Shown here piece by piece: positions 1,836 through 46,916 of a stretch of DNA of 64,000 nucleotides. The stretch's first letter is position 1. Each line of letters opens with the position of its first letter. The DNA comes from an uncultured Methanoregulaceae archaeon (GTDB lineage: Archaea; Halobacteriota; Methanomicrobia; Methanomicrobiales; Methanospirillaceae). The stretch spans positions 128,001-192,000 of the forward strand of contig CAVTTL010000001.1 of the NCBI GenBank assembly GCA_963737635.1, in the 5' to 3' direction. Made by a program: the position numbers and the translations under genes. Below the pieces are notes generated by a model. That model ran no database searches, was not told where the DNA came from, and was given only the letters and a program-made list of their open reading frames with translations.

Positions 1836-1842
1836 GAAAAGC

Positions 1843-5049: not shown

Positions 5050-5125
5050 TGGCAGTGTCCAGTGAAAACACGGAAGATGCCGGAGAAGATTTCACCGATA
5101 ACGACAAATACGAAAAACGGGACTG

Positions 5126-7515: not shown

Positions 7516-7750
7516 TTTTTTACCATCGCTATTGTTAGAAATTCGACGTTTGAGAAGAAGGTGTTTCTGAATAATCTAGTGCGTTCACTATCATTATTTT
7601 AATGAATGTTTTTATGCTTACCTGTATCCCTGAAAAATATATCTTTTTCTTTGTGATTTGATCATACCGCGCCGTCGACCCCGGGTATCACAACAAAGAA
7701 ACAACGTAACCAGCTATTACAGATAGGGCACTGTTTTTTGATACGAGTCC

Positions 7751-8671: not shown

Positions 8672-8798
8672 AAAATACGATCCTCTTAAAAAATGGGAAC
8701 TGCCTCTTTTTATGATCTAGGATTCTCCCTTACAAAAATCTATTCGAACGATACACATTTGAAGGTACGAAAAAAACAGTAAAGGAGTGATACTAATA

Positions 8799-9674: not shown

Positions 9675-9866
9675 AAGAGCGATGAGGTGATTTTGGTATG
9701 GCATCCCGCGGGTGAAATCTGGTTGCCTAATCTCCATTTCAATCTTTACATCACCTTATGAACTAACAAACGGAGATCAGATCAAGATCAATTTTACCGC
9801 TGGTCGATTACACTCCTGAAAATACTACGATAAAGTCTTATTAATTAAAAATTCAATTAGTGATGA

Positions 9867-12888: not shown

Positions 12889-13198
12889 AACAAATATTAT
12901 GATAAAAAATATTTTGAATGGGTGAAATGTGCCTTGGCTGCAAACCTTTTCTCGTTTAAGGAATGTATATCGCCTCGCGATAACATCATTGAATTTGATT
13001 ATGAGGTTAAAGGCAGTCTCCCCCTTCGGGTAGATTCACCAGAAAAACGTTCGAGAATGGTATCCTTTGTTTTTCCTGCGGGATTGATGGCATAGGCAAC
13101 TCAACAATCACCCTAATCAGGGCAAGAAAGAAAAAGATGAATATGGTTCTTCAGACAATATATAACGAGAATCAACCGGAAAATTTGGGCACTATACC

Positions 13199-14155: not shown

Positions 14156-15444
14156 AAATATGTGTGTTTGGGTTATGGCACCTGGGATCGGTCATTTGTG
14201 CGAGTCTTGCGAAATCCGGACATACCGTTGTCGGCCTTGATTTCAATCGGGAGAACATTGAAAACTTCCGGAACGCCAAAGCCCCCGTTTCAGAACCCGG
14301 ATTAAACGAACTAATTCTTGAAAATCTCCAGAAAAAATCGTTGCGTTTCACGTGCGATCCTGCACCTGCCCTGACAGATGCAGAGGTAGTGTGGATCGCA
14401 TTTGATACACCGGTGGATGAACAGGATAATGCAGATCCCAGTTATATAGAGAAGAATTTTGAGATAATTTCCGGATTTATACGGAACCAGGCGAAAATTA
14501 TCATATCCTCACAGGTTCCCGTTGGATTCACCCGGCATCTTTCTCAGAAATTCCATGAGAAATATCCTGGTAAAAACGTTTTCTTTTCGTACTCACCGGA
14601 AAACTTACGCTTGGGGAAAGCACTGAAAACATTTTTGGAACCGGACCGGATTGTCATTGGAACTCTGCCTGAAGATAAAGCCCTATTTCTCCCCATTTTC
14701 TCATCCATCAGTAATAGACAGGAATGGATGAGTATTGAATCAGCTGAAATGACAAAACATGCAATCAACTCTTTTCTTGCCACCTCAATCTGTTTTGCAA
14801 ATGAAATTGCAACACTCTGCGAATACGTGGGAGCAAATGCAAAAGAGGTCGAACGGGGATTAAAAACCGAAGAACGGATCGGTCCGAAAGCATACCTCAC
14901 ACCGGGCAATGCATTTTCAGGAGGTACCCTGGCAAGGGATATACGATTTTTACAAAAATTAGGAGACCATAACCATCTGCCGGTCCCCCTCATCAACGCT
15001 GTCTTAACAAGCAATGACTTCCACAAGACATGGATTAAAAGAAAATGTAACGAAACACTTGGTGAACTTAAGGGAAAAAATATCTCTGTCTTTGGACTTA
15101 CCTACAAACCAGGGACTGACACATTACGGAGATCCTTTTCCGTGGAACTCTGTACATGGCTCCATGGCGAAGGCGCCACAATCACCGCATTCGATCCCGC
15201 AATTCATGAGCTCCCCTCAGAATTACAGGGAACCCTTTCGTTATCTTCCGGCATTCTTCCCGCGGTAAAAGATGCAGACTGCCTTATCATTGCCACGGAA
15301 TGGCCGGATTTCCAAAAAATCCCGGTGGATATCCTTATTCATATGAGGACGAAGATCCTCATCGATCCCAATGGATTTGTGGAACACAATCTGGGAGAGG
15401 CCCATAATATTCGTTATCTGACCGTAGGAAGAGATCTTTCATGA
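14152..15444 (+). CDS. UDP-glucose/GDP-mannose dehydrogenase family protein lacking the catalytic Cys (LmbL-type)
   Basis: GLWHLG, FDTP, SPENLRLG, AEMTKHAIN, GLTYKPGTDTLR; FSGGTLARD where the family usually has GGxCxxKD. Confidence 0.85.
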   Translation: MKICVFGLWHLGSVICASLAKSGHTVVGLDFNRENIENFRNAKAPVSEPGLNELILENLQKKSLRFTCDPAPALTDAEVVWIAFDTPVDEQDNADPSYIEKNFEIISGFIRNQAKIIISSQVPVGFTRHLSQKFHEKYPGKNVFFSYSPENLRLGKALKTFLEPDRIVIGTLPEDKALFLPIFSSISNRQEWMSIESAEMTKHAINSFLATSICFANEIATLCEYVGANAKEVERGLKTEERIGPKAYLTPGNAFSGGTLARDIRFLQKLGDHNHLPVPLINAVLTSNDFHKTWIKRKCNETLGELKGKNISVFGLTYKPGTDTLRRSFSVELCTWLHGEGATITAFDPAIHELPSELQGTLSLSSGILPAVKDADCLIIATEWPDFQKIPVDILIHMRTKILIDPNGFVEHNLGEAHNIRYLTVGRDLS

Positions 15445-16307
15445 AACTCGCTGGACGAAATGCGATAATAACCGGGGCAAACCGGGGTTTTGGCCTTGAA
15501 ATTGCCAAAAAGTTTGTTGAAGAAGGAGCGTCTGTTCTCATCTGCGGGAGAGACGAAGATCAGGTTGCGCTTGCCGTTGATTCCCTGCGGAAACTCACTT
15601 CGTCGGAACAAACCGTTGTTGGTGTACCCCTAGACGTGTCAAAGGAAGAAAATGTCAAACAGATGATTAACGTCGCAATCGATACGTTGAAACGGATTGA
15701 CATCGTGGTCAACAATGCCGGGATATACGGGCCAAAAGGACTCATAGAAGATGTCGATTCAGGGGAATGGGTATCTGCGATCCATATCAACCTTTTAAGC
15801 GTTTTTTTCATGTGTAAAGGGATACTTCCGCATATGAAAAAGAACAATGCCGGGAAAATAATCAACCTTTCCGGAGGAGGAGCAACGGCACCATTACCAA
15901 GAATAAGTGCCTATGCCGCATCCAAAGCAGCAGTCGTAAGATTGACAGAAACACTCGCTGAGGAATGCAGGGAATATGCAATTGATATTAACGCTGTTGC
16001 ACCGGGTGCACTCAACACCCGGCTTCTCGACGAAATCCTGGAGTCCGGGCCTGATGTTGTAGGTAAGGCGTTTTACGAGAAAGCCCTCAAACAAAAAGCC
16101 GATGGCGGAACACCCCTCCAGTTAGGTGCTGAACTCTGTGTTTACCTGGCATCTTCTGCCAGTGACGGGATAACCGGGAAACTAATCAGCGCCCCTTGGG
16201 ACCCCTGGCAAAACCTTGCGCAGTACCGCGATGAACTAAGAAATTCGGATATTTACACATTAAGAAGGATCGTTGAGAAAGATCGCGGTAAAAACTGGGG
16301 GACCTGA
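15441..16307 (+). CDS. short-chain dehydrogenase/reductase
   Basis: TGANRGFG, NNAG, YAASK. Confidence 0.92.
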   Translation: MKLAGRNAIITGANRGFGLEIAKKFVEEGASVLICGRDEDQVALAVDSLRKLTSSEQTVVGVPLDVSKEENVKQMINVAIDTLKRIDIVVNNAGIYGPKGLIEDVDSGEWVSAIHINLLSVFFMCKGILPHMKKNNAGKIINLSGGGATAPLPRISAYAASKAAVVRLTETLAEECREYAIDINAVAPGALNTRLLDEILESGPDVVGKAFYEKALKQKADGGTPLQLGAELCVYLASSASDGITGKLISAPWDPWQNLAQYRDELRNSDIYTLRRIVEKDRGKNWGT

Positions 16308-16308
16308 C

Positions 16309-17299
16309 GTGAAAGTCGGTATAATCGGGTGCGGTGCCGTCGGGAAGAAACGTGCTCTTGCCTTGGGGGATAACGAACTTGTGATGGCTGTCGATACGTC
16401 ACTCGAACGGGCGCGGGACGTAGCGCAGCTCAAAAACTGTACTTCAGTAAGCACTGATTACCATGATGCGCTGAATAACGACCAGATTGAGCTTTTGTTT
16501 ATCTCAACCACCAATGAATTTCTCGCAAAAATTACCTTAGATGCAGTCTCTGCCAAAAAGCATGTACTGGTAGAGAAACCCGCAGGCAGGACCCCTAAAG
16601 AACTCATTCCCATTATCGAAACGGCACAACGAAATAATGTTTTTGTCAAAGTGGGATTCAATCACCGGTTTCATCCGGCATTGCACAAGGCAAAACAACT
16701 GGTGGATTCAGGAGAGATTGGACCGTTAATGTTTATCCGCGGCCGGTATGGTCACGGGGGGCGGCGCGGATATGAAAAAGAGTGGCGTTCAATTCCTGAA
16801 AAATCGGGGGGTGGGGAGCTCATCGACCAAGGAGTTCACCTGATCGATTTGTCACGATGGTTCCTTGGCGACCTTGATGTCGCTGAAGGTTTTGCCCATA
16901 CGGTACTTCTGGGATATGCCGGTCGATGATAATGCATTCCTGATGCTGAAAAGTCCACGCGATCAGATCGCATGGCTCCATGTCAGCTGCACTGAGTGGA
17001 AGAATATGTTTTCTTTTGAAATTTATGGAAAAACGGGAAAACTCCAGATAGAGGGTCTTGGCGGAAGTTATGGCACGGAACGGCTATGCCTTTATAAAAT
17101 GCTTCCTCTGATGGGCCCACCGGAAACGACGATATGGGAATATCCGTTCCCGGACGATTCCTGGAATCTCGAAGTGAATGAATTCATCCGGTCGATCGAA
17201 ATGCACAAAGAACCAGAGGGAAATATACGCGATGCCAAAAAAGCACTGGATATCGTCGAGAAAGTGTATGACAAATCCCATTTTAAGGTGAATATATGA
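16309..17299 (+). CDS. Gfo/Idh/MocA family oxidoreductase (LmbZ-type family); frameshift near 16900
   Basis: GIIGCGAVG, VLVEKP, GFNHRF, GGGELIDQGVH; C-terminus continues in ORF 16865..17299. Confidence 0.85.
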
Positions 17300-18279
17300 T
17301 TATCACTCGTAGTCCTTTGAGAATCTCCCTTGGCGGCGGAGGAACAGATCTGCCTTCGTATTACCAGAAACATGAAGGTTTTTTGATTGCCGCGGCGATC
17401 GACAAATACGTCTATATCAACCTGCACGATACGTTCGTTGATTATCTCATTGTAAAATACTCAAAAATGGAAGAGGTCAGGAGCATCGAAGAGATCAAGC
17501 ATCCCATTATTCGCGAATCCCTGAAACTGCTGGGATTTGACGCCCGGTACCTTGAAATTGCGAGCCTTGCAGACATCCCGGCAGGTACTGGCCTCGGCTC
17601 GTCCAGCAGCTTTACCTGTTCGCTCCTTAAAGCACTTCATACCCATAAGAAAAACCTGATTTCACCGGCGGATCTTGCTGAACAAGCTTGTCACATTGAG
17701 ATGGATCTTCTTCACGAACCCATTGGCAAACAGGATCAATATATCTCCGCACATGGTGGCATTAACTGTTTCACGTTCTGTAAAGACAACCGGGTAAAAA
17801 CGGAAAAACTCAATATATCCCCGGAAACACTCTACAATCTCGAGGACCACCTCTTGCTCTTTTTCACCGGGTACTCACGTTCTGCATCAAACGTTCTCAG
17901 AGAGCAGGACGACAAAAGCAAGAAAAACGATACCACCATGATCGATAACCTGCACTTTGTCAAGGAACTGGGGTATAAGAGTAAAACAGCTTTTGAACGT
18001 GGGGATCTTGAAGAGTTTGCCAACATCATGAACGTTCATTGGGAGCATAAGAAGCAGCGCTCGAACGCGATGAGCAACGACCGGATCAACACGTGGTACG
18101 ATATCGCTATGAAAAACGGTGCGCTGGGGGGGAAACTCATCGGTGCCGGGGGCGGGGGATTTTTGATGTTCTATGCTGAAGACACCAAGAAACTCCGCAA
18201 GGCCATGGCATGCGAAGGGCTCCAAGAAGTCCGGTTCCGGTTTGACTTCGACGGCAGCAAAGTGGTGACTACATCGTAA
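17296..18279 (+). CDS. GHMP sugar-phosphate kinase (HddA/LmbP family)
   Basis: SPLRISLGGGGTD, PAGTGLGSS, GKQDQY, GAGGGGF. Confidence 0.92.
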   Translation: MIITRSPLRISLGGGGTDLPSYYQKHEGFLIAAAIDKYVYINLHDTFVDYLIVKYSKMEEVRSIEEIKHPIIRESLKLLGFDARYLEIASLADIPAGTGLGSSSSFTCSLLKALHTHKKNLISPADLAEQACHIEMDLLHEPIGKQDQYISAHGGINCFTFCKDNRVKTEKLNISPETLYNLEDHLLLFFTGYSRSASNVLREQDDKSKKNDTTMIDNLHFVKELGYKSKTAFERGDLEEFANIMNVHWEHKKQRSNAMSNDRINTWYDIAMKNGALGGKLIGAGGGGFLMFYAEDTKKLRKAMACEGLQEVRFRFDFDGSKVVTTS

Positions 18280-18996
18280 TGCTGCCAGTGGTTATTCTTG
18301 CGGGAGGACTTGCCACCCGCCTGTACCCGGTAACCCAAAAAATCCCCAAATCTCTGATTTTGATCGCCGGCCGGCCCTTTATCGATCACCAGCTGGAGCT
18401 CCTGAAAGAAAAAGGCGTGGCCCGGGTCGTCCTGTGTGTGGGAAACTTTGGCGCTATGATCGAATCATATGTTGGCGACGGCTCCCGGCTCGGGCTGGAA
18501 GTGACAGTACTCCTATGATGGGGACGCTCTCCTTGGGACAGGTGGCGCAATTAAAAAGGCAGCCGGGATGCTTCCGGAGGCGTTCATGATCCTGTACGGT
18601 GACTCCTATCTCGATATCGATTTTGAACCGATCGCGCAAACGTTTAGCGCGGGGACACTTCCGGCCCTGATGACGGTGTACCGGAACCGGAACACATTCG
18701 ATACGAGCAACGTCATTATGAAGGATGGGAAAATTGTAAGGTATGACAAGAAATCCCGCGATCCGTCCATGGAATACATTGATTATGGGCTCATTGCGAT
18801 CCGGAAAAACGTTTTCGATGAGTATCCGGTAAATGAACCCTTCGATCTCTCTCTAGTTCTTTCCCGGCTGGTTGACACCGGGCAGGTCTTAGGATATGAG
18901 GTCACGAAACGCTTTTACGAGATCGGGTCGACATCAGGGATCAAGGAAACTGAAGACTATATCAGGACAAGAAAACCAGTTTCATACAAGGTCTGA
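18279..18996 (+). CDS. sugar-1-phosphate nucleotidyltransferase (HddC/LmbO family); frameshift near 18510
   Basis: ILAGGLATRL...PKSL, then LGTGGA, LYGDSY and FYEIGS in the next frame. Confidence 0.85.
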
Positions 18997-18998
18997 AA

Positions 18999-19607
18999 AT
19001 GACGAGTGAAAACGATTATATTTCTGCATTCCTCAACGACGCTGTAACGATAATCCGGAAAATCGATCAGGTCCAGATCAAAAAAATGTCTGAAATTCTC
19101 CAGGACATCCGAAAAAACGGCGGGCGTCTGTTCATTCTCGGCGTCGGCGGTGGAGCCGGACACGCATCCCATGCAGTGAACGATTTCCGGAAGATCGCCG
19201 GGATTGAATCCTATGCGCCGACGGATAACGTTTCGGAGCTCACCGCCCGTGTCAATGATGACGGCTGGGAGACCGTTTTTGAGAGCTGGCTCAAAGGAAG
19301 CAGGCTCACCGCGAAGGACTGCATCTTTGTCTTTTCTGTCGGCGGCGGGAATGCAGAAAAGAATGTCAGCGTGAACCTAGTGAATGCCCTGCGATATGCA
19401 AAGGATACCGGTACAAAAATCATCGGTGTTGTGGGACGTGATGGTGGCTACACGGCAAAAGTTGCGGATGCCTGCGTGATTATCCCGACCGTAAACGAGA
19501 AGACCGTAACCCCCCAGACGGAAGCTTTCCAGGCCGTTGTCTGGCATCTCATCGTTTCAAGCCCGGCGATGCAGAAGTTCGAGATGAAGTGGGAAAGCAC
19601 AAAATAA
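18999..19607 (+). CDS. SIS-domain phosphosugar isomerase (GmhA/LmbN-related)
   Basis: GVGGGAGHASHAVND, SVGGG; GmhA-like length but divergent motif. Confidence 0.85.
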   Translation: MTSENDYISAFLNDAVTIIRKIDQVQIKKMSEILQDIRKNGGRLFILGVGGGAGHASHAVNDFRKIAGIESYAPTDNVSELTARVNDDGWETVFESWLKGSRLTAKDCIFVFSVGGGNAEKNVSVNLVNALRYAKDTGTKIIGVVGRDGGYTAKVADACVIIPTVNEKTVTPQTEAFQAVVWHLIVSSPAMQKFEMKWESTK

Positions 19608-19616
19608 TTTTTTTCG

Positions 19617-20204
19617 ATGAAACCGGCAGTTTTTTTCGATCGCGATGGTGTCATCAACGAGCTCATGCTGAACTCGGACACCGGGGAGTACGAACCGCCC
19701 CATTCACCGGGAGATCTTACTCTTTTTCCTGATGTGATTGCATCTTTACGAATCCTTCAGAATGCCGGTTTTGATCTCTTCCTCGTGTCCAACCAACCAG
19801 ATTACGCAAAAGGGAAAACGACGCTGGAGCAGATCCAAGCGGTGCACGAGAGACTCAATCAGATCCTGAAATCCGAAGGGATTCTGTTCCGTGACTACTA
19901 TTACTGCTACCACCACCCGCAGGGAACTGTCCCTGAATATTCTTTCTCGTGTGAGTGCCGGAAACCAAAACCCTATTTCATCCTGAAAGCAGCCCGGGAT
20001 TATGGGATCGATCTCGCGCATTCGTGGATGGTCGGCGATCGGGATACCGATATTGCATGCGGAAAAGCGGCAGGGACCCGGACTATTCTGATTCTTTATC
20101 CACACTCAGCTGGAAACCGTGGCTCCGGCGACCCGGATTACAAAGTTGAAAATATCCGGGATGCGGTACACACGATAATACGTCCCTCTGACAAAAAAAT
20201 ATGA
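19617..20204 (+). CDS. HAD-IIIA sugar-bisphosphate phosphatase (GmhB/LmbK family)
   Basis: FFDRDGVIN, VSNQ, CxH...CECRKP, MVGDRDTD. Confidence 0.92.
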   Translation: MKPAVFFDRDGVINELMLNSDTGEYEPPHSPGDLTLFPDVIASLRILQNAGFDLFLVSNQPDYAKGKTTLEQIQAVHERLNQILKSEGILFRDYYYCYHHPQGTVPEYSFSCECRKPKPYFILKAARDYGIDLAHSWMVGDRDTDIACGKAAGTRTILILYPHSAGNRGSGDPDYKVENIRDAVHTIIRPSDKKI

Positions 20205-20305
20205 CTGTAGCGTAAATCGCCGAATATAAAACAACGAATCTTAAAGATGCAGAACAGATAATACTTCATAATCAGGACTAAAAAAAGTGAACTGGAAGTA
20301 ATATT

Positions 20306-21022
20306 ATGAGCGGATTACCACAGTTTAAGATCAAGCTCTATGCGGATGGTGCCGATCTCGACGGCATGATCGAGGAGTACAAAAAAGGGATTGCAAGCGG
20401 TTTTACGACCAACCCGACCCTTATGAAAAAAGCCGAGGTCAAAAGTTACGAGGATTTTGCAAAAGCTGCCCTCAAGGCGATTCCGGACCTTCCCATCTCA
20501 TTCGAAGTTTTTTCTGATGACCTGCCCGGGATGGAACGCGAAGCCCGGAAGATCGCTGGCTGGGGAAAGAACGTCTATATCAAGATCCCGGTGACCAACA
20601 CCAAAGGCGAAAGCACAGCACCGCTCGTGAAAAAACTCTCCCACGACGGTCTGAAGCTGAATGTTACCGCTATCCTGACCCTCGACCAGGTAAAGACAGT
20701 GGCAAAGGCCCTTTCCCCGGATACGCCGAGCATCGTTTCGGTGTTTGCCGGTCGTATCGCGGATACCGGAAGAGACCCGATGCCGATTATGAAAGATGCC
20801 GTGAAGATCCTCAAGCCCTTGCCGAAAGCCGAACTGCTCTGGGCAAGCACCCGAGAGCTGTTGAACCTTGTTCAGGCCGAGTCCTGCGGCTGTCACATCA
20901 TCACGATCACGAATGATATCTTAAAGAAGGTCCCGCAGGTCGGTAAAGATCTGAACCAGTTGTCGCTTGAGACCGTGCAGATGTTTTACTCCGATGCGCA
21001 AAGTGCGGGATATAAGATTTAA
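20306..21022 (+). CDS. tal: transaldolase
   Basis: GFTTNPT, ISFEV (Glu), YIKIP Schiff-base Lys, SVFAGR (Phe): transaldolase rather than FSA residues. Confidence 0.9.
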   Translation: MSGLPQFKIKLYADGADLDGMIEEYKKGIASGFTTNPTLMKKAEVKSYEDFAKAALKAIPDLPISFEVFSDDLPGMEREARKIAGWGKNVYIKIPVTNTKGESTAPLVKKLSHDGLKLNVTAILTLDQVKTVAKALSPDTPSIVSVFAGRIADTGRDPMPIMKDAVKILKPLPKAELLWASTRELLNLVQAESCGCHIITITNDILKKVPQVGKDLNQLSLETVQMFYSDAQSAGYKI

Positions 21023-21034
21023 TTTCCAAAACCG

Positions 21035-21096
21035 GAAATTTCTCTTTTTTTAAAGAGATCTTTATTAAAATAATGTTTTTTACAGAATTTTTTAAT
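21035..21096. terminator. T-rich intergenic region between convergent genes, probable archaeal terminator
   Basis: Several T5-T7 runs directly after the tal stop. Confidence 0.4.
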
Positions 21097-22563
21097 TTAT
21101 TTTATCTTCGCATTTTTTGGAACGTCCCGTGACCCCCCAAAAGAACTCCCGAATCGTCCTTTAATGCGAGGCCACCAGAACATTCTCCACTTAAACGCAT
21201 AAATGGTCGGGATAAGCTGCCACTGGTGCTTGAATCCGCGCCATGTGAAAAGAGTGTCGCAGGAGAGATAGGATCGTAATTCTTCCCATAACTCATGTAA
21301 TTCTTCTTCGGTGTGTTCTGCGGTATATACTGGTACGGGGTTTTCAGTAAGCCAATAATCATCGGTAATTTGCCCACATGCTTTCATATCCTCGAAGAGT
21401 TCGGTACCGGGATAAACTCGGGCAATCCGTTTCTTCTCTTCCTCTGCTGCATAATAATGATACTTTTCCTTCTGGATGCGGTTCATCAGCCGGCCCGTAT
21501 TTCTGATAGATTCCATAGTTTCTCCCTTCAGGCCGACAATAAAGAAGACGTCTAGATCTATACTGGTATTCTTAAACAGGTCTATGGCGCGAATCACATC
21601 CTCAGGGGTGGTGTGTTTATGACAGTTTTTTAAAACGGTGGGATCCCCACTTTCCAATCCGAACGATGCTCTTTCAAATCCGGTTTGTGCCAAAGCGTCG
21701 ATGACCTCTTTGGAGAGGGGGCGAAATCGTGCCTGACACCGGTAAGTAAAAGGAAGTTTGTTTTCCCGGATTAATTCACACAACCGGATGATCCTTTTAT
21801 TATCGGTTAAAAACGCATCATCATGGAAAAAAATTCTTTCTATGAACGGATAATCCCTGACGATGTCTTTGAGTTCGGCAACAATGTTCTCCGGGGATCG
21901 GTATCGCGTCATCCTTTTTGCCGTGGGATTCAAAGAGCAAAATGAACAGGCGTTTGGGCACCCTCGTGCTGTCAGAACGCACGCACTTTTCCGGCCAGTA
22001 CCTTTTAGGAATGGAGATTGATCCGGGAATGGCAGTGTATCAAGATCGGTAAGGGGTCTTACCTCTGTCGTAACAATCTCTCCATCACGCATAAATGCGA
22101 TTCCTTTAACTGCATCAATAGGTATGCCTTTCTCTAGTTTATCCGCGAGTTCCGCAAAGGTCAAATCACCCTCGCCGACAACTACGATGATATGAGGGTA
22201 TTTATTAAGCATCTGCTTGTAGAGGATTGTTGCATGGATTCCTCCGATAACAACTTTTATTCCGGGATGATTATCATGGAGATATTCAATAAGACGGTAT
22301 GATGAGATTCGTTTTTCAGTAAGGATCTGGATACCGATTACGTCAGGCTGCTTGTCTCGGGTGAACACCTTGATTTTTTGTTCGGCCTCTGTCTCGCTGT
22401 AATCGTCGAGATAAAGTAAATCCACATCGTGGTTATCTTTTAGCGAAGCCGCAACGTATGCCAATCCTAAGGAGTATTGGCTTTGAGATGGGTCTACCAT
22501 GGGGAGGCGGGGGCCATCAAATGTCGATTGATCCCAAGGCATTGTAACTAGAACTATTTTCAT
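21097..22563 (-). CDS. B12-binding radical SAM protein (class B methyltransferase-like)
   Basis: SLGLAYVAA, IGGIHAT, GEGD, ARGCPNACSFC (CX3CX2C), GLESG. Confidence 0.9.
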   Translation of the reverse strand: MKIVLVTMPWDQSTFDGPRLPMVDPSQSQYSLGLAYVAASLKDNHDVDLLYLDDYSETEAEQKIKVFTRDKQPDVIGIQILTEKRISSYRLIEYLHDNHPGIKVVIGGIHATILYKQMLNKYPHIIVVVGEGDLTFAELADKLEKGIPIDAVKGIAFMRDGEIVTTEVRPLTDLDTLPFPDQSPFLKGTGRKSACVLTARGCPNACSFCSLNPTAKRMTRYRSPENIVAELKDIVRDYPFIERIFFHDDAFLTDNKRIIRLCELIRENKLPFTYRCQARFRPLSKEVIDALAQTGFERASFGLESGDPTVLKNCHKHTTPEDVIRAIDLFKNTSIDLDVFFIVGLKGETMESIRNTGRLMNRIQKEKYHYYAAEEEKKRIARVYPGTELFEDMKACGQITDDYWLTENPVPVYTAEHTEEELHELWEELRSYLSCDTLFTWRGFKHQWQLIPTIYAFKWRMFWWPRIKGRFGSSFGGSRDVPKNAKIK

Positions 22564-22853
22564 TCAATTACTCCAACAAAGATACATTTGCGTTGCTCCT
22601 TTAACAAAGTCAATTATTGTCTCTGTCTCCTCATGGAGTAATATTTTTCGTAGTCAAGTCACCGTTTACCATCAAATAGGGATCCGAACGAGGCGTTCGT
22701 TACCCTCTCGATGTTGTAGTCTTCTCCGCGCTCGTTAAAATCCTCAAGCGGCTGTAATAACACCCGATAATAGTTAACATTGGGTATCCAGCCAAATTAA
22801 CACACAGATGATCTATGAAATCAGAATGTTTACAAGTGTCGTTATGTAGATCC

Positions 22854-23657
22854 CTATTTATTACTAACAAAATCCATGATGGTCTTCCCGCCTAACATCT
22901 TTTCTTTCAACCTAGTTAACTTCTGGATATGATAATTCTGAGCGGTCGGGCATTTATGGCAGATGGATTTCGGCTGGGTCTGCAGTTCCAATGAAATACC
23001 GCGATGTTTTTCCACGAGTTCCCGGTACGTGTTTTTATAAAGCGAGCCAATTGGTTCTGTTAATCCTCGCATAGAGCAACAGAAAATAACATCACCATTT
23101 GGCATCATCTGGTAACCCGGCACTTCGAGATGGGAACAAATCACGCGGCCTCGTTTGAACGTTTTAATTTTGCCTCGCGCCAAGTCCTCAACATGGCAGG
23201 TCTGAAATAACCCCCCCATATTCATAATCTCCATATTATGTACATGGGTAAGGACGTAGGTTAGAACGTCCTGATAATTCTGGGTAATAGGAATGTGAGC
23301 GTTACCTTCAGCATCGGGAAGATGTAGTATAAACTGCACAAACGGGATCTCGCATAATGTTACCGCATCGGAAATCTGCAATCCGACAAGAGTGGTGGAA
23401 ACCCGGATCTTATGCCCTTTCTCGTACGCATACAGGATCATCGCTGGACACTCCGGGTTCTGGAAGACTTCCGACAACCCGGCAAAATCAACGATTACCT
23501 CTGGCGGAACGGTTTCAATCAGTTCTTTAAATGCAGCAAGAGTTAGTGGTTTCATCCCCCCAAGTTTCTTCACAATTAGTTCCTGCGGACAATACTTTAT
23601 GCAATTAATGGCACACCCAATTTGCGTTGTTATTTCAAGATAGGGTTGATCAGTCAT
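22854..23657 (-). CDS. radical SAM/SPASM-like protein with CX3CX3C motif
   Basis: GCAINCIKYCPQ, FAGLSE, C-terminal Cys cluster (CSHL, FCCS, CHKC). Confidence 0.7.
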   Translation of the reverse strand: MTDQPYLEITTQIGCAINCIKYCPQELIVKKLGGMKPLTLAAFKELIETVPPEVIVDFAGLSEVFQNPECPAMILYAYEKGHKIRVSTTLVGLQISDAVTLCEIPFVQFILHLPDAEGNAHIPITQNYQDVLTYVLTHVHNMEIMNMGGLFQTCHVEDLARGKIKTFKRGRVICSHLEVPGYQMMPNGDVIFCCSMRGLTEPIGSLYKNTYRELVEKHRGISLELQTQPKSICHKCPTAQNYHIQKLTRLKEKMLGGKTIMDFVSNK

Positions 23658-24119
23658 TTAATCACTCCGAATAATACGGACATCTCCGGGTGTTGATGGT
23701 GAGGAGCAAAATTGCCTCCTCAATGAGGTAACAGTCTTATAAATAATGTACTTTCTCTTATGGATTAAGTTCACTCTTCCATTCCATGAGCAGAGTGTTT
23801 ACCTCTTTTTTCAGTCTAGGATGAGCCATTGCTTAAACCCACCTTGAATGAGAAAATTCCAAGGTTTTTTTCCCGGGAAATCAACATTCGATTATGAAAA
23901 GATATTTGCAATTCAATAGTGCAAACGCTGATTTAAGAATCGTTTGGGAATTTTGAGTTTTAGAATAATTTCGCCGGGCGAAAAACAGGCCATCTTGATA
24001 TTTCGTAATCCTTAAAAAATAAGTTGTAAAGAAATATGCCCCCTTCATTGTAATAGAATTGCCATGTCCATTGTGTTGTTACCATTCCGACATTTCAAAC
24101 AACAAAAAGATCGAGAGTT

Positions 24120-24830
24120 CTATTTAAGTTTGTAGAGTTTATCAGAGTACTCATTATTCGAATTCAGAGTCCCTACAAGATTGTACTTAGTTCCAATGAT
24201 TTTCTCAACCATTTCTTGCAATTTTGGATGAACTTCAATAAGAAGATAATCGGGAGCATGTCGATCGAAGTCTATACCCCGAAGAACTTCAACTTCATAA
24301 CCCTCAACATCAAGAGATAAAAAATCGATGTGTTTAATACCATAATAATCCAAAACGGCAGAAAGCGGTTTTGCTGGAACGCGAACAATATATGAAGACT
24401 CATCTTTTTTAAGGCATTTTTTACCATTTGCAATATGATTTGAAGCAACGATCTCATCTTCAAAAGCACCGTGAACACAAGTCGCCAAATTACAATAATT
24501 CACTTCTATCGATTTGTCTGGATAATCAAATGCAACAAGCGCACAGTTCTCAATTATGCATTTTGGGCGATTTTCGCGGCATTTTTTCGCAAGATCCGGA
24601 ACTGCTTCTATCAACAATCCTTTCCATCGTTTATACTTCTCAAAATATAGTGTATTGCTTTGATTGATGCCGTCATTTGCACCTACCTCTATAAAAAACC
24701 CGGAATTGAAATTAAGATAGGGTTTCAACTTTAAATCAAGTTGGTTTAACGAAAACGATTTTTCCCATCTTAAATTTCGCAAATCACGGTTTTTGAAGAT
24801 GTGGTTATTAAAGAAATCCCAAATTGTCAT
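24120..24830 (-). CDS. FkbM family methyltransferase
   Basis: [21 protein letters not shown]. Confidence 0.9.
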
Positions 24831-26104
24831 TTGAGTTCACCATTCCATTCCATGAGAGGAGCGATAACGCCGGGTCTTCTTTCCGTCCAATAGGGGCTGT
24901 CGCTTAGACCGCCAACAATATTTATATTTACAAAGGGTGCTTTTTTCCTAGAATCTATAATTAAATGTCTGCACCGGAGAGAGGCAGTTAATTCGATGGT
25001 GTAAATCCCCTCGTTTAAAAATCGTTTGGGAATTTTTGTCTTTAACAGAAAATTCCCCAATGAAAATTTCGGCCAGTCCGTCTCTTTTTGATCGGTACAA
25101 AGAGATGTATATATTACAATTCCATTTTCATTCGAAATGAAATAACCAAGTGCTAATCCAGGATCTAATTGTTTAATTTCACCTTCGATTTCAATCCAGA
25201 TATCCTTGTTATTACTTGTTGGATTATTTATAAAATTTCCCAAAGAATCACAAATGATCATTTTTAGAGGTTTAAACCATGGATTCTCAAATTCTTTACC
25301 AGAATTATTCCACTGAGATGAAAATGTCCCACTAGTTTCCACTGATATGTAGGAGTCTATAATTTGCCTTACATGTGGCCCTTTTTGTTTAATGTGGCCA
25401 TTTTCTATGAGAATGCCATACGAGCACAACTGTTCAATCGCATTCATATTATGGCTCACAAAAATGACCGTTCGCCCCTCTTTAGCCACCTCGCCCATTT
25501 TTCCCAGGCATTTTTTCTGGAATGCTGCATCACCGACAGCAAGCACCTCGTCCACCAGTAGAATCTCCGGTTCAAGGTGAGCTGCCACTGCAAACGCGAG
25601 CCGGATATACATCCCGCTTGAATATCGTTTCACCGGTGTATCAAGAAATTTTTCAATCTCAGAAAATTTTACAATATCATCCAGTTTGGCATCGATCTCT
25701 TTCCGTTTCATTCCGAGGATCGAACCAGATAAATAGATATTCTCCCGACCAGTTAATTCCTGATGAAACCCGGTCCCGACTTCCAGCAGTGAACCGACCC
25801 GGCCATGCAACTCCACGGTTCCTTCCGTAGGAGAAGTAATCCGGGAAAGGATCTTTAAGAGCGTACTCTTCCCGGCTCCGTTTCTCCCGATAATCCCGAC
25901 AATCTCACCCTGCTCAACGTCAAACGATACATCCTTTAAAGCCCAGAACCCTTCCACCGGTGGGGCCTTGTGGAACACTTTCAATGGCGCCTTAAGAGAA
26001 TTGACAATTGCATCCCGAAAGGTATGATACGGTTCCTGCGGTCCACCGATACGGTATTGTTTGCTCAGGTGATTTACACGGATGGCGATTTTGTCAGACG
26101 TCAT
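24827..26104 (-). CDS. wzt: polysaccharide ABC exporter ATPase with C-terminal carbohydrate-binding domain
   Basis: [30 protein letters not shown] plus a C-terminal extension. Confidence 0.92.
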
Positions 26105-41753: not shown

Positions 41754-41810
41754 CGTCAACCACTAAAAATTGAGAGGTTGACGATAAAAAAGTACCGGTC
41801 TCACTGGCTT

Positions 41811-41860
41811 TGCACGTAATGTCGTTTCTGCACGTAAAGTATGAGACTTGCACGTAAAGT
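41811..41860 (+). repeat. left-end array of three TGCACGTAA(A/T)GT motifs
   Basis: Copies start at 41811, 41829 and 41849. Confidence 0.9.
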
Positions 41861-41909
41861 CCAAAATGTTGCGGCAATAATCGGAAATTGGACGAAAGAT
41901 AAAAAAAAG

Positions 41910-43262
41910 TTACTTTCTCGTCTCTTCGGCTTCTATGCCATAGAAGTCTAGTTTTATTTGGACAGCTTCTTTCTGTACTCTATCTTCATCAATTTTATCA
42001 AAGAAAGATGAAAGCTTGTCTTTAATGTCATACTCAGGGCCAGTGATTTTTCTAGAATTTGCTGCTACAGTTAAAACATCAGATAATAATTCCTTTCCGC
42101 CTTTGTTTGGAGCTATTGTTAAAACGCCCTCAGTTATAGCATCTTTACTGATTAACCCAACCTGATCTAATGAGTTCCTCACTTTTTGAACAACCGCAAC
42201 TTCAAATTCGTCAATTAATTCGTCTTCTGTGACCGAATCCCGATTTTGTATTTTTACGAGTATATCCGTTGACTCAGGTACACTTCTTATAAGACGCAAT
42301 ATGTCAGCAGCATTGTTGTATTCGTAATAATTCAAACCTAGCAATGTGCCACTTGTAGGGCGACTTAATGCATCTTCTAATTGGAGTGTACGTGTCCTTT
42401 GGGCAAGTCCCATATTATCAACGTGCCTAATTAACCGATTCACAACCCTCTGATTCCACCCTGTAGCTTCAACAATTTCGCTTTGAGTGATATAACCTCC
42501 AAATTCTCCCGTTGTGATTAATAACTGCTTTAATGCAACTCTTACCTCATTTGCCTCTTCTAATACAGTTTGCCAAGTATTCAGGGCTTTTTCTCCGAGA
42601 ACGTATGCTTTAGCAAAAGTAAATTCTCTTCCAGTTACACTAATCGGACGGATTATGTCGATATCTGATAATGCACCATAATCCCTTGCAAAATCAGCCC
42701 AATTTGGAGAATTTGCCTCAAGATCATTTGTAAGTTCCGGAAAATCCTGAATACGGTACATAATATCAAAATGGTTTTTTTGCTCGCTAAACAACTTTGT
42801 ATTCAAAAGGAAGTTATTTCGGACATACAATTTACTGCCCACTTGATATGGCATTACTTTTTCAATTTTCTTTTTTGTTGGATCAAATTGAATTATTCCA
42901 TCGGAAATAAGATGAGGTATAACAGTACCATTCAAACTAGTGTTGAAACTAGATCTTTGACTTGTTGTAGGTGTGACATTCCAAACTCTTTCCACAATAT
43001 CATTCACGGAATGAGTGGAGTGAGCAGCATCCAAAAATGCCAATGCTCTGGCTAGAGAGACGGCAGAGCTAAAATGTCCGGCATGTCTTTGATAAGTTCT
43101 CAGTGGATTCGATAAAACAAATTCTCTGACCCCACGGGTCATCTGATCTACCGCTCTTATTACATCATTTAATTGTTTATCATTCAAACGAGAGAGAACA
43201 TTTGGAGGTATTTTTTTAACCATAGGATCTGAAAGATAGGGTTTAAAAATATCATCGGCCAT
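41910..43262 (-). CDS. transposon cargo protein of unknown function with probable tandem winged-helix domains (450 aa)
   Basis: ITQSEIVEATGWNQRVVNRLIRHVDNMGLAQR and VTEDELIDEF...VRNSLDQVGLI resemble wHTH units; AT-rich. Confidence 0.65.
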   Translation of the reverse strand: MADDIFKPYLSDPMVKKIPPNVLSRLNDKQLNDVIRAVDQMTRGVREFVLSNPLRTYQRHAGHFSSAVSLARALAFLDAAHSTHSVNDIVERVWNVTPTTSQRSSFNTSLNGTVIPHLISDGIIQFDPTKKKIEKVMPYQVGSKLYVRNNFLLNTKLFSEQKNHFDIMYRIQDFPELTNDLEANSPNWADFARDYGALSDIDIIRPISVTGREFTFAKAYVLGEKALNTWQTVLEEANEVRVALKQLLITTGEFGGYITQSEIVEATGWNQRVVNRLIRHVDNMGLAQRTRTLQLEDALSRPTSGTLLGLNYYEYNNAADILRLIRSVPESTDILVKIQNRDSVTEDELIDEFEVAVVQKVRNSLDQVGLISKDAITEGVLTIAPNKGGKELLSDVLTVAANSRKITGPEYDIKDKLSSFFDKIDEDRVQKEAVQIKLDFYGIEAEETRK

Positions 43263-43263
43263 A

Positions 43264-44238
43264 TCATTTCATCTCCTTGAGGATTTTCTTCTTGCAATCA
43301 TCCAAAAATATTTGAGAAATTATTATATTATCTGTTTTTGGGTCAAGGGACACAATCGAAGCATTGTTAATTTTTAATCTCCAATTCTCGTGTTTAAATA
43401 GACGATCAAGATCAGGGGCGAAATCATAATTCTTTAGAGATTTTAACAAGATATCACGATCTTCAGCTTGTTTTATTGAATGAATTGCATCGGAAAATAT
43501 TGCAAAAATTTGTTCATTCAGATCAAGAATAGGGGCAAACGGATGTATGGATGTGCTCGATGCTTTCCCCTCCAATTTATAACTCATAGCTGAAGCCAAT
43601 CCCCGAATTAATGAAAAATATTGCATATTTTGTTTATTCACTTTTTCAATTTTGTACAGAGGCTCAAAAAGTGTGGAAATGTCTTTACCAGAAGGATTAC
43701 GGATTGTTTTTATTGAAATTATGGTATGAGCTGAACTGATAATCATAATCCTTCGGATTGTATCTAATGATGTGGCATTACCTAATTGTTGAGATAATTC
43801 TAGATCATTAAGTCCTTCCTTAAAATTCTCAATAACTTCCCAACAATGGTTTTCAAAGATTAAGGAAAAGGGTGAAAACGGATCGCACACCATTGAATCA
43901 TAGCTCTCAGCAAGCAATCCCGCAGTAATATGGTTTTTTGTTGAGGAATCTAAATCGTCTTCCAATGCAGGAATGCCCCCAACCCATCTAACGAACGATT
44001 TTTTTGACTTTATTCCTTTATATTTGACTACAAATCCCTCGTTCTGAAGAATATTTGCGCGTCTACCTGTGTTGCTTGCATGAAGGCCTATCTCTAAAGC
44101 AAGATCAGGGACGGAAATCTCCTTCCTCTCGAAAACTATTTTTAGAATCTTTTCATCAATGGGATCAATTGGTCTATTAATGATCTTGGCAATTCGTGTT
44201 GTTTTCGAACCGCTTGATTTTTTTGGGTCTGGCTTCAT
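43264..44238 (-). CDS. transposon cargo protein with N-terminal MarR-like wHTH (~324 aa)
   Basis: DPIDEKILKIVFERKEISVPDLALEIGLHASNTGRRANILQNEGFV; a second wHTH-like segment follows; stop is 1 bp from the next start. Confidence 0.7.
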   Translation of the reverse strand: MKPDPKKSSGSKTTRIAKIINRPIDPIDEKILKIVFERKEISVPDLALEIGLHASNTGRRANILQNEGFVVKYKGIKSKKSFVRWVGGIPALEDDLDSSTKNHITAGLLAESYDSMVCDPFSPFSLIFENHCWEVIENFKEGLNDLELSQQLGNATSLDTIRRIMIISSAHTIISIKTIRNPSGKDISTLFEPLYKIEKVNKQNMQYFSLIRGLASAMSYKLEGKASSTSIHPFAPILDLNEQIFAIFSDAIHSIKQAEDRDILLKSLKNYDFAPDLDRLFKHENWRLKINNASIVSLDPKTDNIIISQIFLDDCKKKILKEMK

Positions 44239-44388
44239 AATACATTCATTCTCCCCGAAGTTTTTACATCTTTGCGCAATCTGCAACTCTGCGCAACTCT
44301 GCGCATATAATCAACGTTGCTCTCCTGACTACTTATAAATAACTCCATTTCGAACATTAATTTTCACCCTGCGTTCTGAATGTTTTAA

Positions 44389-44538
44389 TTAACCATTCAT
44401 TTTCTCTCTCTTCGGAATGTTCCAATAAGGACTCTTACACTTCGGACAAACTTTTGGCTCCTCCGTACCTCGTGCGATCCACTCGTGCCCACACCGTTCA
44501 CACTTGAATCCATCAACTACTAGCTTCACTTTTGCCAT
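44389..44538 (-). CDS. zinc-ribbon microprotein (49 aa), absent from the ORF track
   Basis: Translated by hand: MAKVKLVVDGFKCERCGHEWIARGTEEPKVCPKCKSPYWNIPKREKMNG; two CxxC motifs. Confidence 0.82.
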   Translation of the reverse strand: MAKVKLVVDGFKCERCGHEWIARGTEEPKVCPKCKSPYWNIPKREKMNG

Positions 44539-44553
44539 GCATAGTGTGTTACT

Positions 44554-44638
44554 TTGTTAGTATATAATTATGTAAGGTATTACCAACTAATCGGCAAGTA
44601 TATATGCAATGCTTACGTATATAGTAATATACCAACAA
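44554..44638. promoter_or_regulatory. divergent promoter region with inverted repeat
   Basis: TTGTTAGTATAT (44554) and ATATACCAACAA (44627) are inverted, 11/12 match; TATA-like runs between the microprotein and the transposase. Confidence 0.5.
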
Positions 44639-44662
44639 GGTAAGTTTAAGGAGTGAAAAAAG

Positions 44663-45898
44663 ATGCAAACCAACAAACCCCTAACCACCAGCCGCGAAGA
44701 GAGGGGGCGAGAAATCGCTAACAAGAGCGGTCACATCCAGAAAGTCAAAGACAACCAGTACAAGGTAAGGTCACAGTCCGGCAATGGCTCTTATGAGATC
44801 AAAATCACCGGGACCGGGGCCGAATGCAGTTGCCCGGATTTCCAGAACCGGCACCAGCCCTGTAAACACATTCTGGGACTTCGCTATTATCTTGAAATTC
44901 AGAAAGATACTCCAAAAGGCACCGTTACTGAAAAGGTACGCTTAACCTACACTCAGGCATGGAGCGCATACAACGCCGCGCAGACAGAAGAGATCAAGAT
45001 ATTCGATGCTCTGTTAAAGGACTTAGTAAAGGCGATTCCTGAGCCGGAGCAAAAGATGGGGAGACCGCGCCTGCCCATGAGTGAAACTCTCTTCTGTGCG
45101 ATTCAGAAGGTATACTCGCAGTTATCCAGCCGCCGCGCACACAGCCTCTTTCAAAATGCAGTCGAGCGGAAACAGATCGACCACGCGCCATACTTCAATG
45201 TAACATCAGCCGTTTTTAACAACCCTGAGATTACGCCGATACTTCACGAACTGGTTACACTCTCGGCGTTACCGGTTGCCGGTCTGGAAACAGACTTCGC
45301 GGTAGACTCTACCGGATTCAGAACCACTACATTTAGCGAATACTGCGGAATGAAACATGGACAGAAGAAAGCACACCGATGGATCAAGGCACACTTGGCA
45401 ACCGGTGTAAAGACCAATATCGTAACAAGTATTGAGATCACCGGAGAGAACGGTGCGGATTCCCCGCAGTTTACGCCACTTGTCAAAGACATCTCAAAGA
45501 ATTTCAATATCCACGAGATTTCCGCCGACAAAGCATATTCATCCCGCGACAACTACGAGACTGTAAATGCAGTCGGCGGTACTGCATATATCCCGTTCAA
45601 GAATCATGCAACTGGCAAGACTCGCGGCTCTCCCATCTGGAAAAAGATGTACCATTACTTCCAACTTAACAAGGACGAGTTTATGGAGCACTATCACAAG
45701 CGCAGTAATGTAGAATCCACCAACGCAGCGATCAAAAGGAAGTTCGGGGAAACCCTGAAATCAAAGAATCAGATCGCGCAGGTGAACGAATTACTAGCAA
45801 AAATCATCGCATACAATCTGACGGTAGTAATTCACGAGATGTACGAGAATGGGATCTCACCGGACTTCCTGCACGTAAAGTCCGAGGTTTGCACGTAA
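44663..45898 (+). CDS. tnp: DDE transposase (IS5/IS903-like) with N-terminal SWIM zinc finger
   Basis: CSCPDF...CKH SWIM motif; AVDSTG, SADKAY, YHKRSNVES..K catalytic motifs. Confidence 0.93.
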   Translation: MQTNKPLTTSREERGREIANKSGHIQKVKDNQYKVRSQSGNGSYEIKITGTGAECSCPDFQNRHQPCKHILGLRYYLEIQKDTPKGTVTEKVRLTYTQAWSAYNAAQTEEIKIFDALLKDLVKAIPEPEQKMGRPRLPMSETLFCAIQKVYSQLSSRRAHSLFQNAVERKQIDHAPYFNVTSAVFNNPEITPILHELVTLSALPVAGLETDFAVDSTGFRTTTFSEYCGMKHGQKKAHRWIKAHLATGVKTNIVTSIEITGENGADSPQFTPLVKDISKNFNIHEISADKAYSSRDNYETVNAVGGTAYIPFKNHATGKTRGSPIWKKMYHYFQLNKDEFMEHYHKRSNVESTNAAIKRKFGETLKSKNQIAQVNELLAKIIAYNLTVVIHEMYENGISPDFLHVKSEVCT

Positions 45899-45929
45899 TG
45901 TAGGGTCAAAACCCTACTTTACGTGCAAA
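45870..45929. repeat. right-end motif array and 19-bp-stem palindrome
   Basis: Motifs at 45870 and 45890 (direct) and 45916 (inverted); TTTGCACGTAATGTAGGGT-CAAA-ACCCTACTTTACGTGCAAA. Confidence 0.88.
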
Positions 45930-45936
45930 GCCGGTC

Positions 45937-46916
45937 TCACTGGTGGAAACAGTCGCCGGCGATTACACGTTCAAGCTTGCCATTGTCTTTGCGGATGATG
46001 AGCGCGCCAAACTCGTCGATATCAACCGCCTCACCAGAAAAACTGTTCTTGAGTGTCCGGATATTCACCCGGTGTTCGAGTGTGCAGGAGAGGCTTTTCC
46101 ATTCCCGGATGATGGTATCGTATTCCCCACCTTCGAGAAGGAGATACTGGCCCTCAAACTCTTTTAAGATCCGTGCGAGAAACGAAGCACGGTCTACTTC
46201 GTGGCCGAGTTCTGCGGATATCGAGGTAATATTGTCCTGCAGCGCCGGAGAGAACGTACTGATGGGAACATTTGCATCGATGCCTATCCCGAGCAGGCAG
46301 TAATGGACGGTATCAGCTTCCGCCGCGAGCTCAAGAAGCAGGCCTGCGACTTTCTTGTTCCCAATGAAGATGTCATTTGGCCACTTGATCAGTCCACCGA
46401 GGGAAAACTCCTTGCGTATCGCCCGTGCAACCGCGACAGAACCTGCCATGGTGATCATAAAGACATGATCGATCGGGATATGGGGCTTTAGGACAATCGT
46501 AATCCAGATCCCGCCGCTGGGCGAGAGCCAGGCCCTTCCCATCCTGCCGATGCCGCCGGTCTGCTCCTCGGCGATGATTACCATACCGTGCATCTTCTCT
46601 ACGTCGCCTTCGGCACAGAGCTGTTTTCCCGCCCAGATGGTCGAAGGCGTATTCTCCAGGTACCGCATCTTCTTTCCAATAAACGTGGTATGGAGTTTTT
46701 TATGGATCTCGTACGGGAGCAGCTTGTTGCTCATGCGGGTGAGCCGGTACCCTCTTTCTGAGATGACTCGATGTCATAACCCATCATGCGCAGTTCGTTG
46801 ATGTGCTTCCATACCGCAGACCGGGTGATGCCCAGTTCGTTGCTGACAGCCTCACCTGATATGGGACCGTCCGCCTTTTCGAGAATTTCCATGACCCGAA
46901 ATGCAGAATCAGGCGT
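45937..46916 (-). CDS. birA: bifunctional biotin-protein ligase/repressor; frameshift near 46750 separates the HTH
   Basis: QTGGIGRMGRAW, KWPND, KKVAGLL; upstream frame encodes ISGEAVSNELGITRSAVWKHINELR; start codon uncertain (ACG after GGAGGTGA). Confidence 0.88.

Follow-up and report, generated by a model that had tools for sequence, protein, structure and literature searches.

In a window of 64,000 nt from an uncultured Methanoregulaceae archaeon (CAVTTL010000001.1, 128,001-192,000; coordinates below are positions in this window), we analyzed two adjacent open reading frames (ORFs), here called orfA and orfB, which travel as passengers on a unit transposon of 4127 bp (41806-45932). The pair forms a passenger cassette, probably self-regulated through what look like a dedicated promoter and operator, and occupies the variable slot of an IS5-family transposon of Methanoregula-type methanogens and their relatives. 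The element and its borders comprise the following features:

41797-41805, no strand: left copy of the 9-bp target-site duplication (TSD), GGTCTCACT, identical in 9/9 positions to 45933-45941
41806-41822, forward strand: left terminal inverted repeat (IR), GGCTTTGCACGTAATGT, 17 nt, an inverted match to 45916-45932; the same end is found in sister elements
41811-41822, 41829-41840 and 41849-41860, forward strand: three direct subterminal repeats, TGCACGTAAWGT, presumed transposase-binding sites
41910-43262, reverse strand: orfB, 450 aa; acidic, with tandem winged-helix (WH) domains and a long C-terminal helix
43264-44238, reverse strand: orfA, 324 aa from ATG; basic N-terminal winged helix-turn-helix (wHTH) domain of the MarR/Lrp type (residues 23-89), low-confidence linker (88-107), conserved C-terminal domain from about residue 108
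44273-44311, reverse strand: putative promoter and operator of orfA-orfB, with a TATA-like element at about 44304-44311 followed by TGCGCA repeats
44357-44425, reverse strand: candidate remnant at the recombination joint of backbone and cassette, a 22-aa ORF whose C terminus resembles (by eye) that of the small DUF7557-like ORF preceding orfA in locus L042
44389-44538, reverse strand: zinc-ribbon ORF (CxxC...CxxC) of the transposon backbone, 49 aa, with weak zinc-ribbon matches in Pfam; also present in L068-L070
44539-44662, no strand: conserved intergenic region separating the divergent zinc-ribbon and transposase genes, nearly identical in both elements of this genome
44663-45898, forward strand: transposase of the IS5 family, 411 aa, with an N-terminal SWIM zinc finger and a DDE_Tnp_1 domain
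45870-45932, no strand: right end, with subterminal repeats at 45870-45881 and 45890-45901 and the terminal IR at 45916-45932
45933-45941, no strand: right TSD copy, GGTCTCACT, overlapping the stop codon (45937-45939) of a BirA-like ORF

The lengths of the two ORFs and their spacing were confirmed as given in the initial annotation of this DNA, with a single nucleotide (43263) between the stop codon of orfA and the ATG of orfB; an alternative TTG start at 44286 would extend orfA to 340 aa. Their AT-richness was likewise confirmed. GC content is 0.368 and 0.359 in the 42-44 kb interval compared to 0.52-0.60 in the flanks and about 57% in the genome, which makes the ORFs an island of 36-37% GC. 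We conclude that orfA and orfB are real genes and not chance ORFs, because they have 54 and 44 homologous protein clusters, respectively (E<=1e-3, the window's own cluster counted in each), and because the ratio of nonsynonymous to synonymous substitution rates (dN/dS) is 0.07-0.23 in all nine orfA/orfB comparisons among close relatives, indicating purifying selection.

The transposase was assigned by PF01609 (4.6e-26), PF04434 (3.3e-06) and NF033579 (142.3 bits, cut-off 140). Three TGCACGTAAWGT repeats lie inside each transposon end. This motif has 12 exact matches in the 2.46-Mb genome, all of them at the ends of two full elements, compared to none for a control pattern. A first reading of the target duplication as 13 bp was rejected in favor of a 9-bp TSD with IRs starting GG, since the duplication is then perfect in the second element of this genome (copy 2) and in ten further loci. 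Besides the window, perfect 9/9 TSDs were found in 11 loci (10 distinct elements). The pair-bearing ones among them (L031, L035, L036, which equals L037, and L038) represent four other distinct insertion sites, and the remaining elements (L014, L060, L068, L070, L071 and L072) carry other cargo. The TSD match is 7/9 in pair-bearing L022 and 5/9 in L024. The proposal that the ORFs are cargo spread by transposition was therefore borne out, and the transposon moves as a unit together with its cargo. Elsewhere, the element splits a gene with a histone-deacetylase domain (L036) and a TrkA-like gene (L016). The pair-bearing element of L035 (56-6086) measures 6031 bp and is longer by about 2 kb of DNA located toward the transposase, and that of L024 (26-4119), on a contig labeled viral, has no matching TSD and adjoins large ORFs with carbohydrate-binding-module domains.

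In the window, the insertion is bordered on one side by a biotin-ligase (BirA)-like ORF, at its stop codon, and on the other by a BioY-like membrane ORF (names assigned by eye from translations). The TSD includes the BirA-like stop codon, and the element therefore separates this ORF from the BioY-like and energy-coupling-factor (ECF)-transporter-like ORFs downstream on the same strand. orfB is directed toward the BioY-like ORF, and read-through could matter for expression of the latter.

Sister elements and an exchangeable cargo slot

A search for the transposase covered 201 genomes from the order and 401 from the class and detected it at E<=1e-100 in 8 of the 401, all within one family. Sister elements have the same ends, transposases 65-91% identical to that of the window, and other cassettes in the slot. 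Copy 2 (L014, G000:C1:977500-983500, element 1282-4956) has a 91% identical transposase, a perfect TSD (GGATGCCCG), an 89% identical zinc-ribbon gene and a near-identical promoter region. Its cargo consists of a 184-aa wHTH protein and a 468-aa protein, both unrelated to orfA and orfB; kinship of the two cassettes was tried and rejected (hhalign probabilities of 0.2% and 19%). The 468-aa protein matched no family in Pfam, PADLOC or PHROGs. This second, uncharacterized pair deserves a study of its own. A third, truncated transposase copy in the same genome (L062, G000:C1:1054500-1060500, about 4639-5304) covers residues 178-407 and contains one stop codon. The cargos of the other sister elements are:

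L068 (element 1742-6252, transposase 90% identical): BsoBI-type restriction endonuclease and type II methyltransferase (Pfam 1.5e-110; PADLOC 3.5e-90 and 6e-163)
L070 (element 1678-6258, transposase 84% identical): restriction-modification (R-M) system with HSDR_N, N6_Mtase and specificity domains, apparently split over three ORFs and type I/IIG-like
L069: three ORFs without an assigned family
L060 and L072: DUF7557 mini-protein and membrane-like ORFs
L071: 259-aa HTH_45 protein
L061: 71-aa wHTH protein

A bona fide R-M system is thus present in 2 of the 9 non-window elements examined, and the cargo slot is swapped between otherwise near-identical elements. Similarity of the window element and copy 2 ends near 44357-44425, and this position may mark the recombination joint for cassette exchange. 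The small ORF between transposase and orfA varies between loci: The window and L046 have a zinc ribbon at this place, L042 has a DUF7557-like ORF, and an ORF with an AbrB/SpoVT-like end (by eye) is present in L022, L024, L031, L032, L035, L038, L043, L044, L047 and L049.

According to an excerpt of a 2019 survey (PMC6563490), passenger-carrying DNA transposons were not detected in archaea. The element family described here is a passenger-carrying archaeal DNA transposon and, although later literature may exist, possibly the first such family of unit transposons to be described in this domain. Full-text literature searches, supplements aside, returned no description of the gene pair or of the transposon family. 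The element resembles passenger-carrying forms of insertion sequences, and also the Tn7-like cargo transposons of PMC8649781, in being a unit with IRs and TSD and variable cargo that holds R-M and family-less genes. It differs from them in its single-transposase IS5-family backbone of about 1.6 kb, its one-cassette slot and its archaeal host. Whatever the function of the pair, the carrier is of interest for being compact, with a single exchangeable slot and perfect TSDs for at least seven different cargos, and it provides a natural "hotspot" in which to mine further archaeal accessory systems.

The pair in other genomes

Relatives of orfB were found at 37 loci from 9 genomes, 1 contig labeled viral and 27 metagenomes; these include duplicates (L036=L037; L022=L040=L041; L033 within L034). 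In 36 of the 37, orfA lies immediately upstream of orfB, and the expected co-occurrence of the homologs was therefore observed. The sole exception, L048 (3285-4466), is an N-terminally truncated and frameshifted orfB without orfA, located beside an ISL3 transposase. In the decayed copy L023 (6732-8749), an IS21 element (rve and IstB genes) is inserted within orfB. Both proteins represent small, conserved families of archaea. Named homologous clusters come nearly all from Methanoregula, anaerobic methanotrophic archaea of the ANME-2 group (Methanogaster) and other archaeal metagenome-assembled genomes, with one orfA cluster labeled as a Bacilli metagenome-assembled genome; additional pair loci belong to Methanothrix and Methanophagales. 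orfB was found in 4 of 401 sampled genomes of the phylum, among them that of the window; of 11 further genomes from the same genus, one has it. A profile built from 42 orfB sequences matched 31 proteins among 1.84 billion representatives, nine of them near full length and the rest mostly fragments; the only longer match, a plant leucine-rich-repeat protein, was rejected as a spurious repeat match. Among longer proteins, no fused form of orfA residues 100-324 was detected, which is weak evidence. Taken together, the two genes are strictly linked, have a rare and patchy distribution, and evolve under purifying selection.

A divergent upstream match to the carrier transposase was found in 18 of the 37 orfB loci. 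Eight of these matches are near full length (70-72% identity); the remainder are fragmentary or truncated where the contig ends, and the one in L042 is weak and confined to the SWIM region. The other 19 loci gave no transposase match, several of their contigs being too short to tell. A distinct situation was observed in ANME-2, where a class II aldolase gene (FBA) and queC flank the pair in L017, L021 and L029, and apparently also in L028 and L030. Neither a transposase match nor an end motif was detected at L017, L021 and L029. Between these three loci the pair is 86-93% identical compared to 71-85% for the flanking genes, with a dS of 0.26-0.41 compared to 0.85-1.9 for the flanks (3-5 times lower) and a dN/dS of 0.12-0.23. 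The higher conservation could be taken for vertical inheritance, which we rejected given that the dS of the pair is far below that of the flanks. The arrival of the pair at this site therefore postdates the divergence of the hosts, suggesting recent spread into one fixed intergenic site. In ANME-2, the pair is kept by selection without a linked transposase.

The region upstream of orfA has a recurrent layout. In the window, TGCGCA occurs at 44300-44305, 44290-44295 and 44273-44278, with a TGCA half-site at 44282-44285, and an exact repeat of 10 nt was attained by 1.4% of shuffles. Other loci show lineage-specific repeats or palindromes of different sequence beside a TATA-like box. For example, L036 and L046 have a perfect palindrome of 22-24 bp, L031 and L035 have repeats of GTGCAC, and L019, L023 and L033 have repeats of TTCATGAACGTTC. 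We tested 28 distinct regions (70 nt upstream of the start codon, exact matches, 500 shuffles) and found an exact repeat or palindrome in 12 of them at <=5% of shuffles and in 6 at <=1%. The operator repeats could have been copies of the transposon-end repeats; this was rejected because the ends are conserved across elements while the operators vary. Judged from the nucleotide sequence, the repeat or palindrome beside the TATA-like box suggests autoregulation, with OrfA as the putative ligand of its own, co-evolving operator.

These observations bear on the idea, raised in the initial annotation, that the pair controls transposition. Here, OrfA and OrfB would help or control the SWIM-DDE transposase through end binding, target choice or transposition immunity, comparable to the Myb-like partner of IS5-related PIF/Harbinger elements or to TnsD/TniQ of Tn7. 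The frequent transposase match upstream of orfB and the conserved ends that pair-bearing elements have in common would fit, as would a weak TnsD match of the 184-aa wHTH protein in the alternative cassette of copy 2 (17.8 bits, below the cut-off of 32.4, E = 0.0019). However, the pair-less sister elements, with their 65-91% identical transposases and the same ends, have perfect 9-bp TSDs, the operator repeats vary by lineage unlike the transposon ends, and the ANME-2 copies are under purifying selection although transposase and ends are missing. Neither orfA nor orfB matched the TnsD/TniQ models. We therefore regard a role of the pair in transposition as improbable.

Domain architecture and possible function

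Searches of Pfam and NCBIfam (E<=1) yielded no family at curated cut-offs for either protein and only sub-threshold winged-helix matches: HTH_24 in orfA (residues 25-70, 21.6 bits, cut-off 21.9), and MarR_2 (247-291), DUF7344 (83-133) and Lrs14/Sta1 (328-376) in orfB. No RAM or MarR dimerization domain was detected in orfA by Pfam at E<=1, and no toxin family in orfB by Pfam, NCBIfam or PADLOC. No system model of PADLOC-DB 2.0 was matched, the best matches being the wHTH portions of CARF/CasR models (E 0.008-0.025), and PHROGs (E<=0.1) gave no match to orfA or orfB. When compared to sequences in the Protein Data Bank (PDB), the orfB profile found nothing at E<=1, while the first ~70 positions of the orfA profile matched Lrp/AsnC/MarR-type HTH domains only (best E 8e-6). 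A language-model feature search of a protein atlas gave no usable match for orfB. The view that the pair maps to no known system therefore stands after searches of Pfam, NCBIfam, PADLOC, PHROGs and PDB sequences. In the initial annotation, no catalytic or transmembrane motif had been found by eye; consistently, no such family was found in Pfam, NCBIfam, PADLOC or PHROGs, while a motif scan for Walker A, PD-(D/E)xK and HNH and a transmembrane predictor were outside the scope of this analysis.

AlphaFold2 models built on family alignments had a mean predicted local distance difference test (pLDDT) of 85.3 and a predicted template-modeling score (pTM) of 0.79 for orfB, and a pLDDT of 81.2 and pTM of 0.62 for orfA, in which residues 1-22 and 88-107 are disordered. 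No catalytic fold was recognized in the models. In orfB, three WH domains are supported by matches and the chain ends in a long helix; the weak DUF7344 match and the predicted pattern suggest a fourth WH at about 83-136. orfA contains one certain WH, which is its least conserved part, followed by a confidently modeled and highly conserved C-terminal domain of about 220 residues and unassigned fold; the predicted pattern suggests up to two further WH domains. In a segment-wise profile comparison, WH1 of orfA was related to WH3 (69%) and WH4 (80%) of orfB and to nothing else. The N terminus of orfA is basic (isoelectric point, pI, 9.7-11.2), and orfB has a pI of 5.57, with a family median of 5.5 and a range of 5.1-6.0. 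This acidic character suggests that several orfB WH domains bind protein rather than DNA. Cysteines number three in orfA and zero in orfB, and no Cys cluster was seen. Prediction of an orfA-orfB complex, run without controls, scored 0.30 compared to a mark of 0.32 and says nothing either way.

Foldseek against the PDB returned nothing passing E<=1e-3, the best match sitting at that value. The top rows comprised RPC62 (Pol III C82), RPC39, TFIIIC tauB, STK19, ESCRT-II and MarR proteins, with template-modeling (TM) scores of 0.1-0.2 on the query. RPC62 was best for orfB (E 1e-3) and RPC62/RPC39 for orfA (E 3-5e-3), with TM scores of 0.14-0.19. A search independent of Foldseek and second-look alignments supported only single WH domains, with a root-mean-square deviation (rmsd) of 11-16 Å in multi-domain rows, and viral structures (BFVD) gave only low-TM wHTH rows for orfA. 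Because their lists were filled by single WH domains, these searches hardly probed the orfA C-terminal domain or orfB residues 1-150. As in the initial annotation, homology to C82/C34, ESCRT-II or kite-kleisin complexes could not be established. ESCRT-II and kite-kleisin proteins (MukE/F, JetA/B, Nse1/3/4) are non-enzymatic WH-repeat proteins that assemble into complexes and thus share a feature with our pair. They stand low in the Foldseek list (probabilities 0.12-0.77, TM <= 0.16), and no SMC or ESCRT partner was found at any locus.

The structural matches lead to an explanation in which the pair is purely regulatory or architectural, that is, a mobile transcription-factor or chromatin complex, possibly associated with RNA polymerase (RNAP) like TFE or Pol III C82/C34. 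Such a complex would adjust expression of host or element, or reduce the burden that the AT-rich element imposes, and would play no part in conflict. Every recognizable domain is a WH, orfA combines a MarR/Lrp-type DNA-binding WH with a putative operator, and the RPC62 and RPC39 rows head the Foldseek list. orfB is also like C82 in its tandem WH domains (three supported, possibly four) and C-terminal helix, and the selection on transposase-less ANME-2 copies would be consistent with a regulatory role. However, TM scores are 0.14-0.19, multi-domain rows have an rmsd of 12-16 Å, no full-length superposition was obtained, only single WH domains were matched, and no sequence similarity to TFE or C82/C34 was seen beyond the generic WH. 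The pair has no Zn-ribbon or Fe-S domain and resides on a transposon, not in the core genome as TFE/TFIIE and Pol III subunits do, and its rare, patchy distribution and horizontal spread would be unusual for a host regulator. Comparison to MarR, Lrp/AsnC and ArsR repressors leads to a similar result: The orfA wHTH and the putative dyad or repeat operator by a TATA-like box are alike, whereas members of the Lrp/AsnC and MarR families have about 140-170 aa and orfA has 324, with the ~220 further conserved residues and an obligate partner gene of 450 aa. We consider a purely regulatory pair somewhat unlikely.

Another candidate function is a replication or segregation initiator or adaptor pair (Cdt1/WhiP, RepA or Orc-like WH) that survives from a plasmid or virus and was taken up by the transposon. 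In the feature search with orfA residues 100-324, a "WhiP replication initiator" cluster came first, with a score of 0.84 that is below the lead threshold of 0.9 and within the range reached by unrelated WH domains. One pair-bearing region (L025) also holds ArdC and DUF6876 genes. Against this origin, no AAA+, primase, helicase or ParA partner was present at any locus, and no iterons were found besides the promoter-proximal repeats. Such a leftover is, in our judgment, very improbable.

Our tentative proposal, which we regard as quite possible though short of probable, is that orfA-orfB forms a non-enzymatic conflict-type module for defense, exclusion or addiction. Its main support comes from three observations: The slot is shared with R-M systems, defense genes are enriched in the cargo of other, Tn7-like transposons according to excerpts of PMC8649781, and the pair is rare and patchy. 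In such a module, the basic, fast-evolving MarR/Lrp-like wHTH of OrfA would bind the lineage-specific repeat or palindrome abutting its own TATA-like box and repress the operon, and its conserved C-terminal domain would engage OrfB. The effector would be OrfB, which as an acidic scaffold of several WH domains and a helix at its C terminus would act through binding of a protein or nucleic-acid target and not through catalysis. By analogy to the R-M systems in sister slots, the module would pay for carriage of the transposon.

The AbiEi-AbiEii system is an example of a two-gene toxin-antitoxin or abortive-infection cassette whose first gene encodes a wHTH autorepressor. The likeness of our pair to AbiE-type cassettes consists of an upstream gene with an N-terminal wHTH and a C-terminal domain that may face the partner, a larger downstream gene for the putative effector, tight spacing (1 nt here) or overlap of the genes, a putative promoter operator, and a mobile, patchy distribution. 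In contrast, orfB shows neither a nucleotidyltransferase, nuclease or kinase fold nor that of any other known toxin, the two proteins far exceed those of typical type II pairs in size, and no PADLOC or Pfam model matches them.

Several points weigh against a conflict function. No PADLOC model matches either protein, and no enzymatic or pore-forming effector domain is visible in them. Only 2 of the 9 sister cargos are recognizable defense systems, the others being family-less, membrane-like or small wHTH proteins, and slot-sharing is therefore weak evidence. The neighborhoods of the homologs are housekeeping genes interrupted by the element, so that a defense-island context, which the initial annotation had named for inspection, was not observed in any consistent form. 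Sixteen of the 28 upstream regions, including all those of the ANME-2 type, have no significant exact repeat. Repeat binding by OrfA and its interaction with OrfB are putative, as is the heteromeric nucleic-acid-binding complex put forward in the initial annotation, and an autorepressor of the wHTH kind acting with a partner would fit a purely regulatory pair just as well. Furthermore, the pair loci are related, and their counts are not independent.

A conflict module could also be categorically new, namely an enzyme-free two-protein system built of WH domains only, which we hold to be unlikely. OrfA would then serve as both sensor and repressor, and the OrfB scaffold would block the replication or transcription machinery of the invader or the host, possibly by mimicking RNAP partners of the TFE or C82-C34 type. 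Defense and conflict systems of archaea are far less charted than those of bacteria, and methanogens and ANME archaea offer few tractable virus-host models. With its strict pairing, its maintenance by selection, its lack of a recognizable enzyme and a slot shared with R-M systems, the cassette is a concrete candidate for a new mechanism that is cheap to test.

Outside the transposon, positions 7000-26000 contain low-GC stretches (0.36-0.47) with glycosyltransferases, sugar-nucleotide enzymes, methyltransferases and an ABC-2 exporter; this region is an ordinary variable surface-glycan cluster, neither a mobile nor a defense island. The rest of the window is ordinary as well, with genes for Topo VI, glycan synthesis, an ABC transporter and pilin, and with pyruvate-carboxylase-like, ECF-transporter-like and RtcB-like ORFs (by eye).

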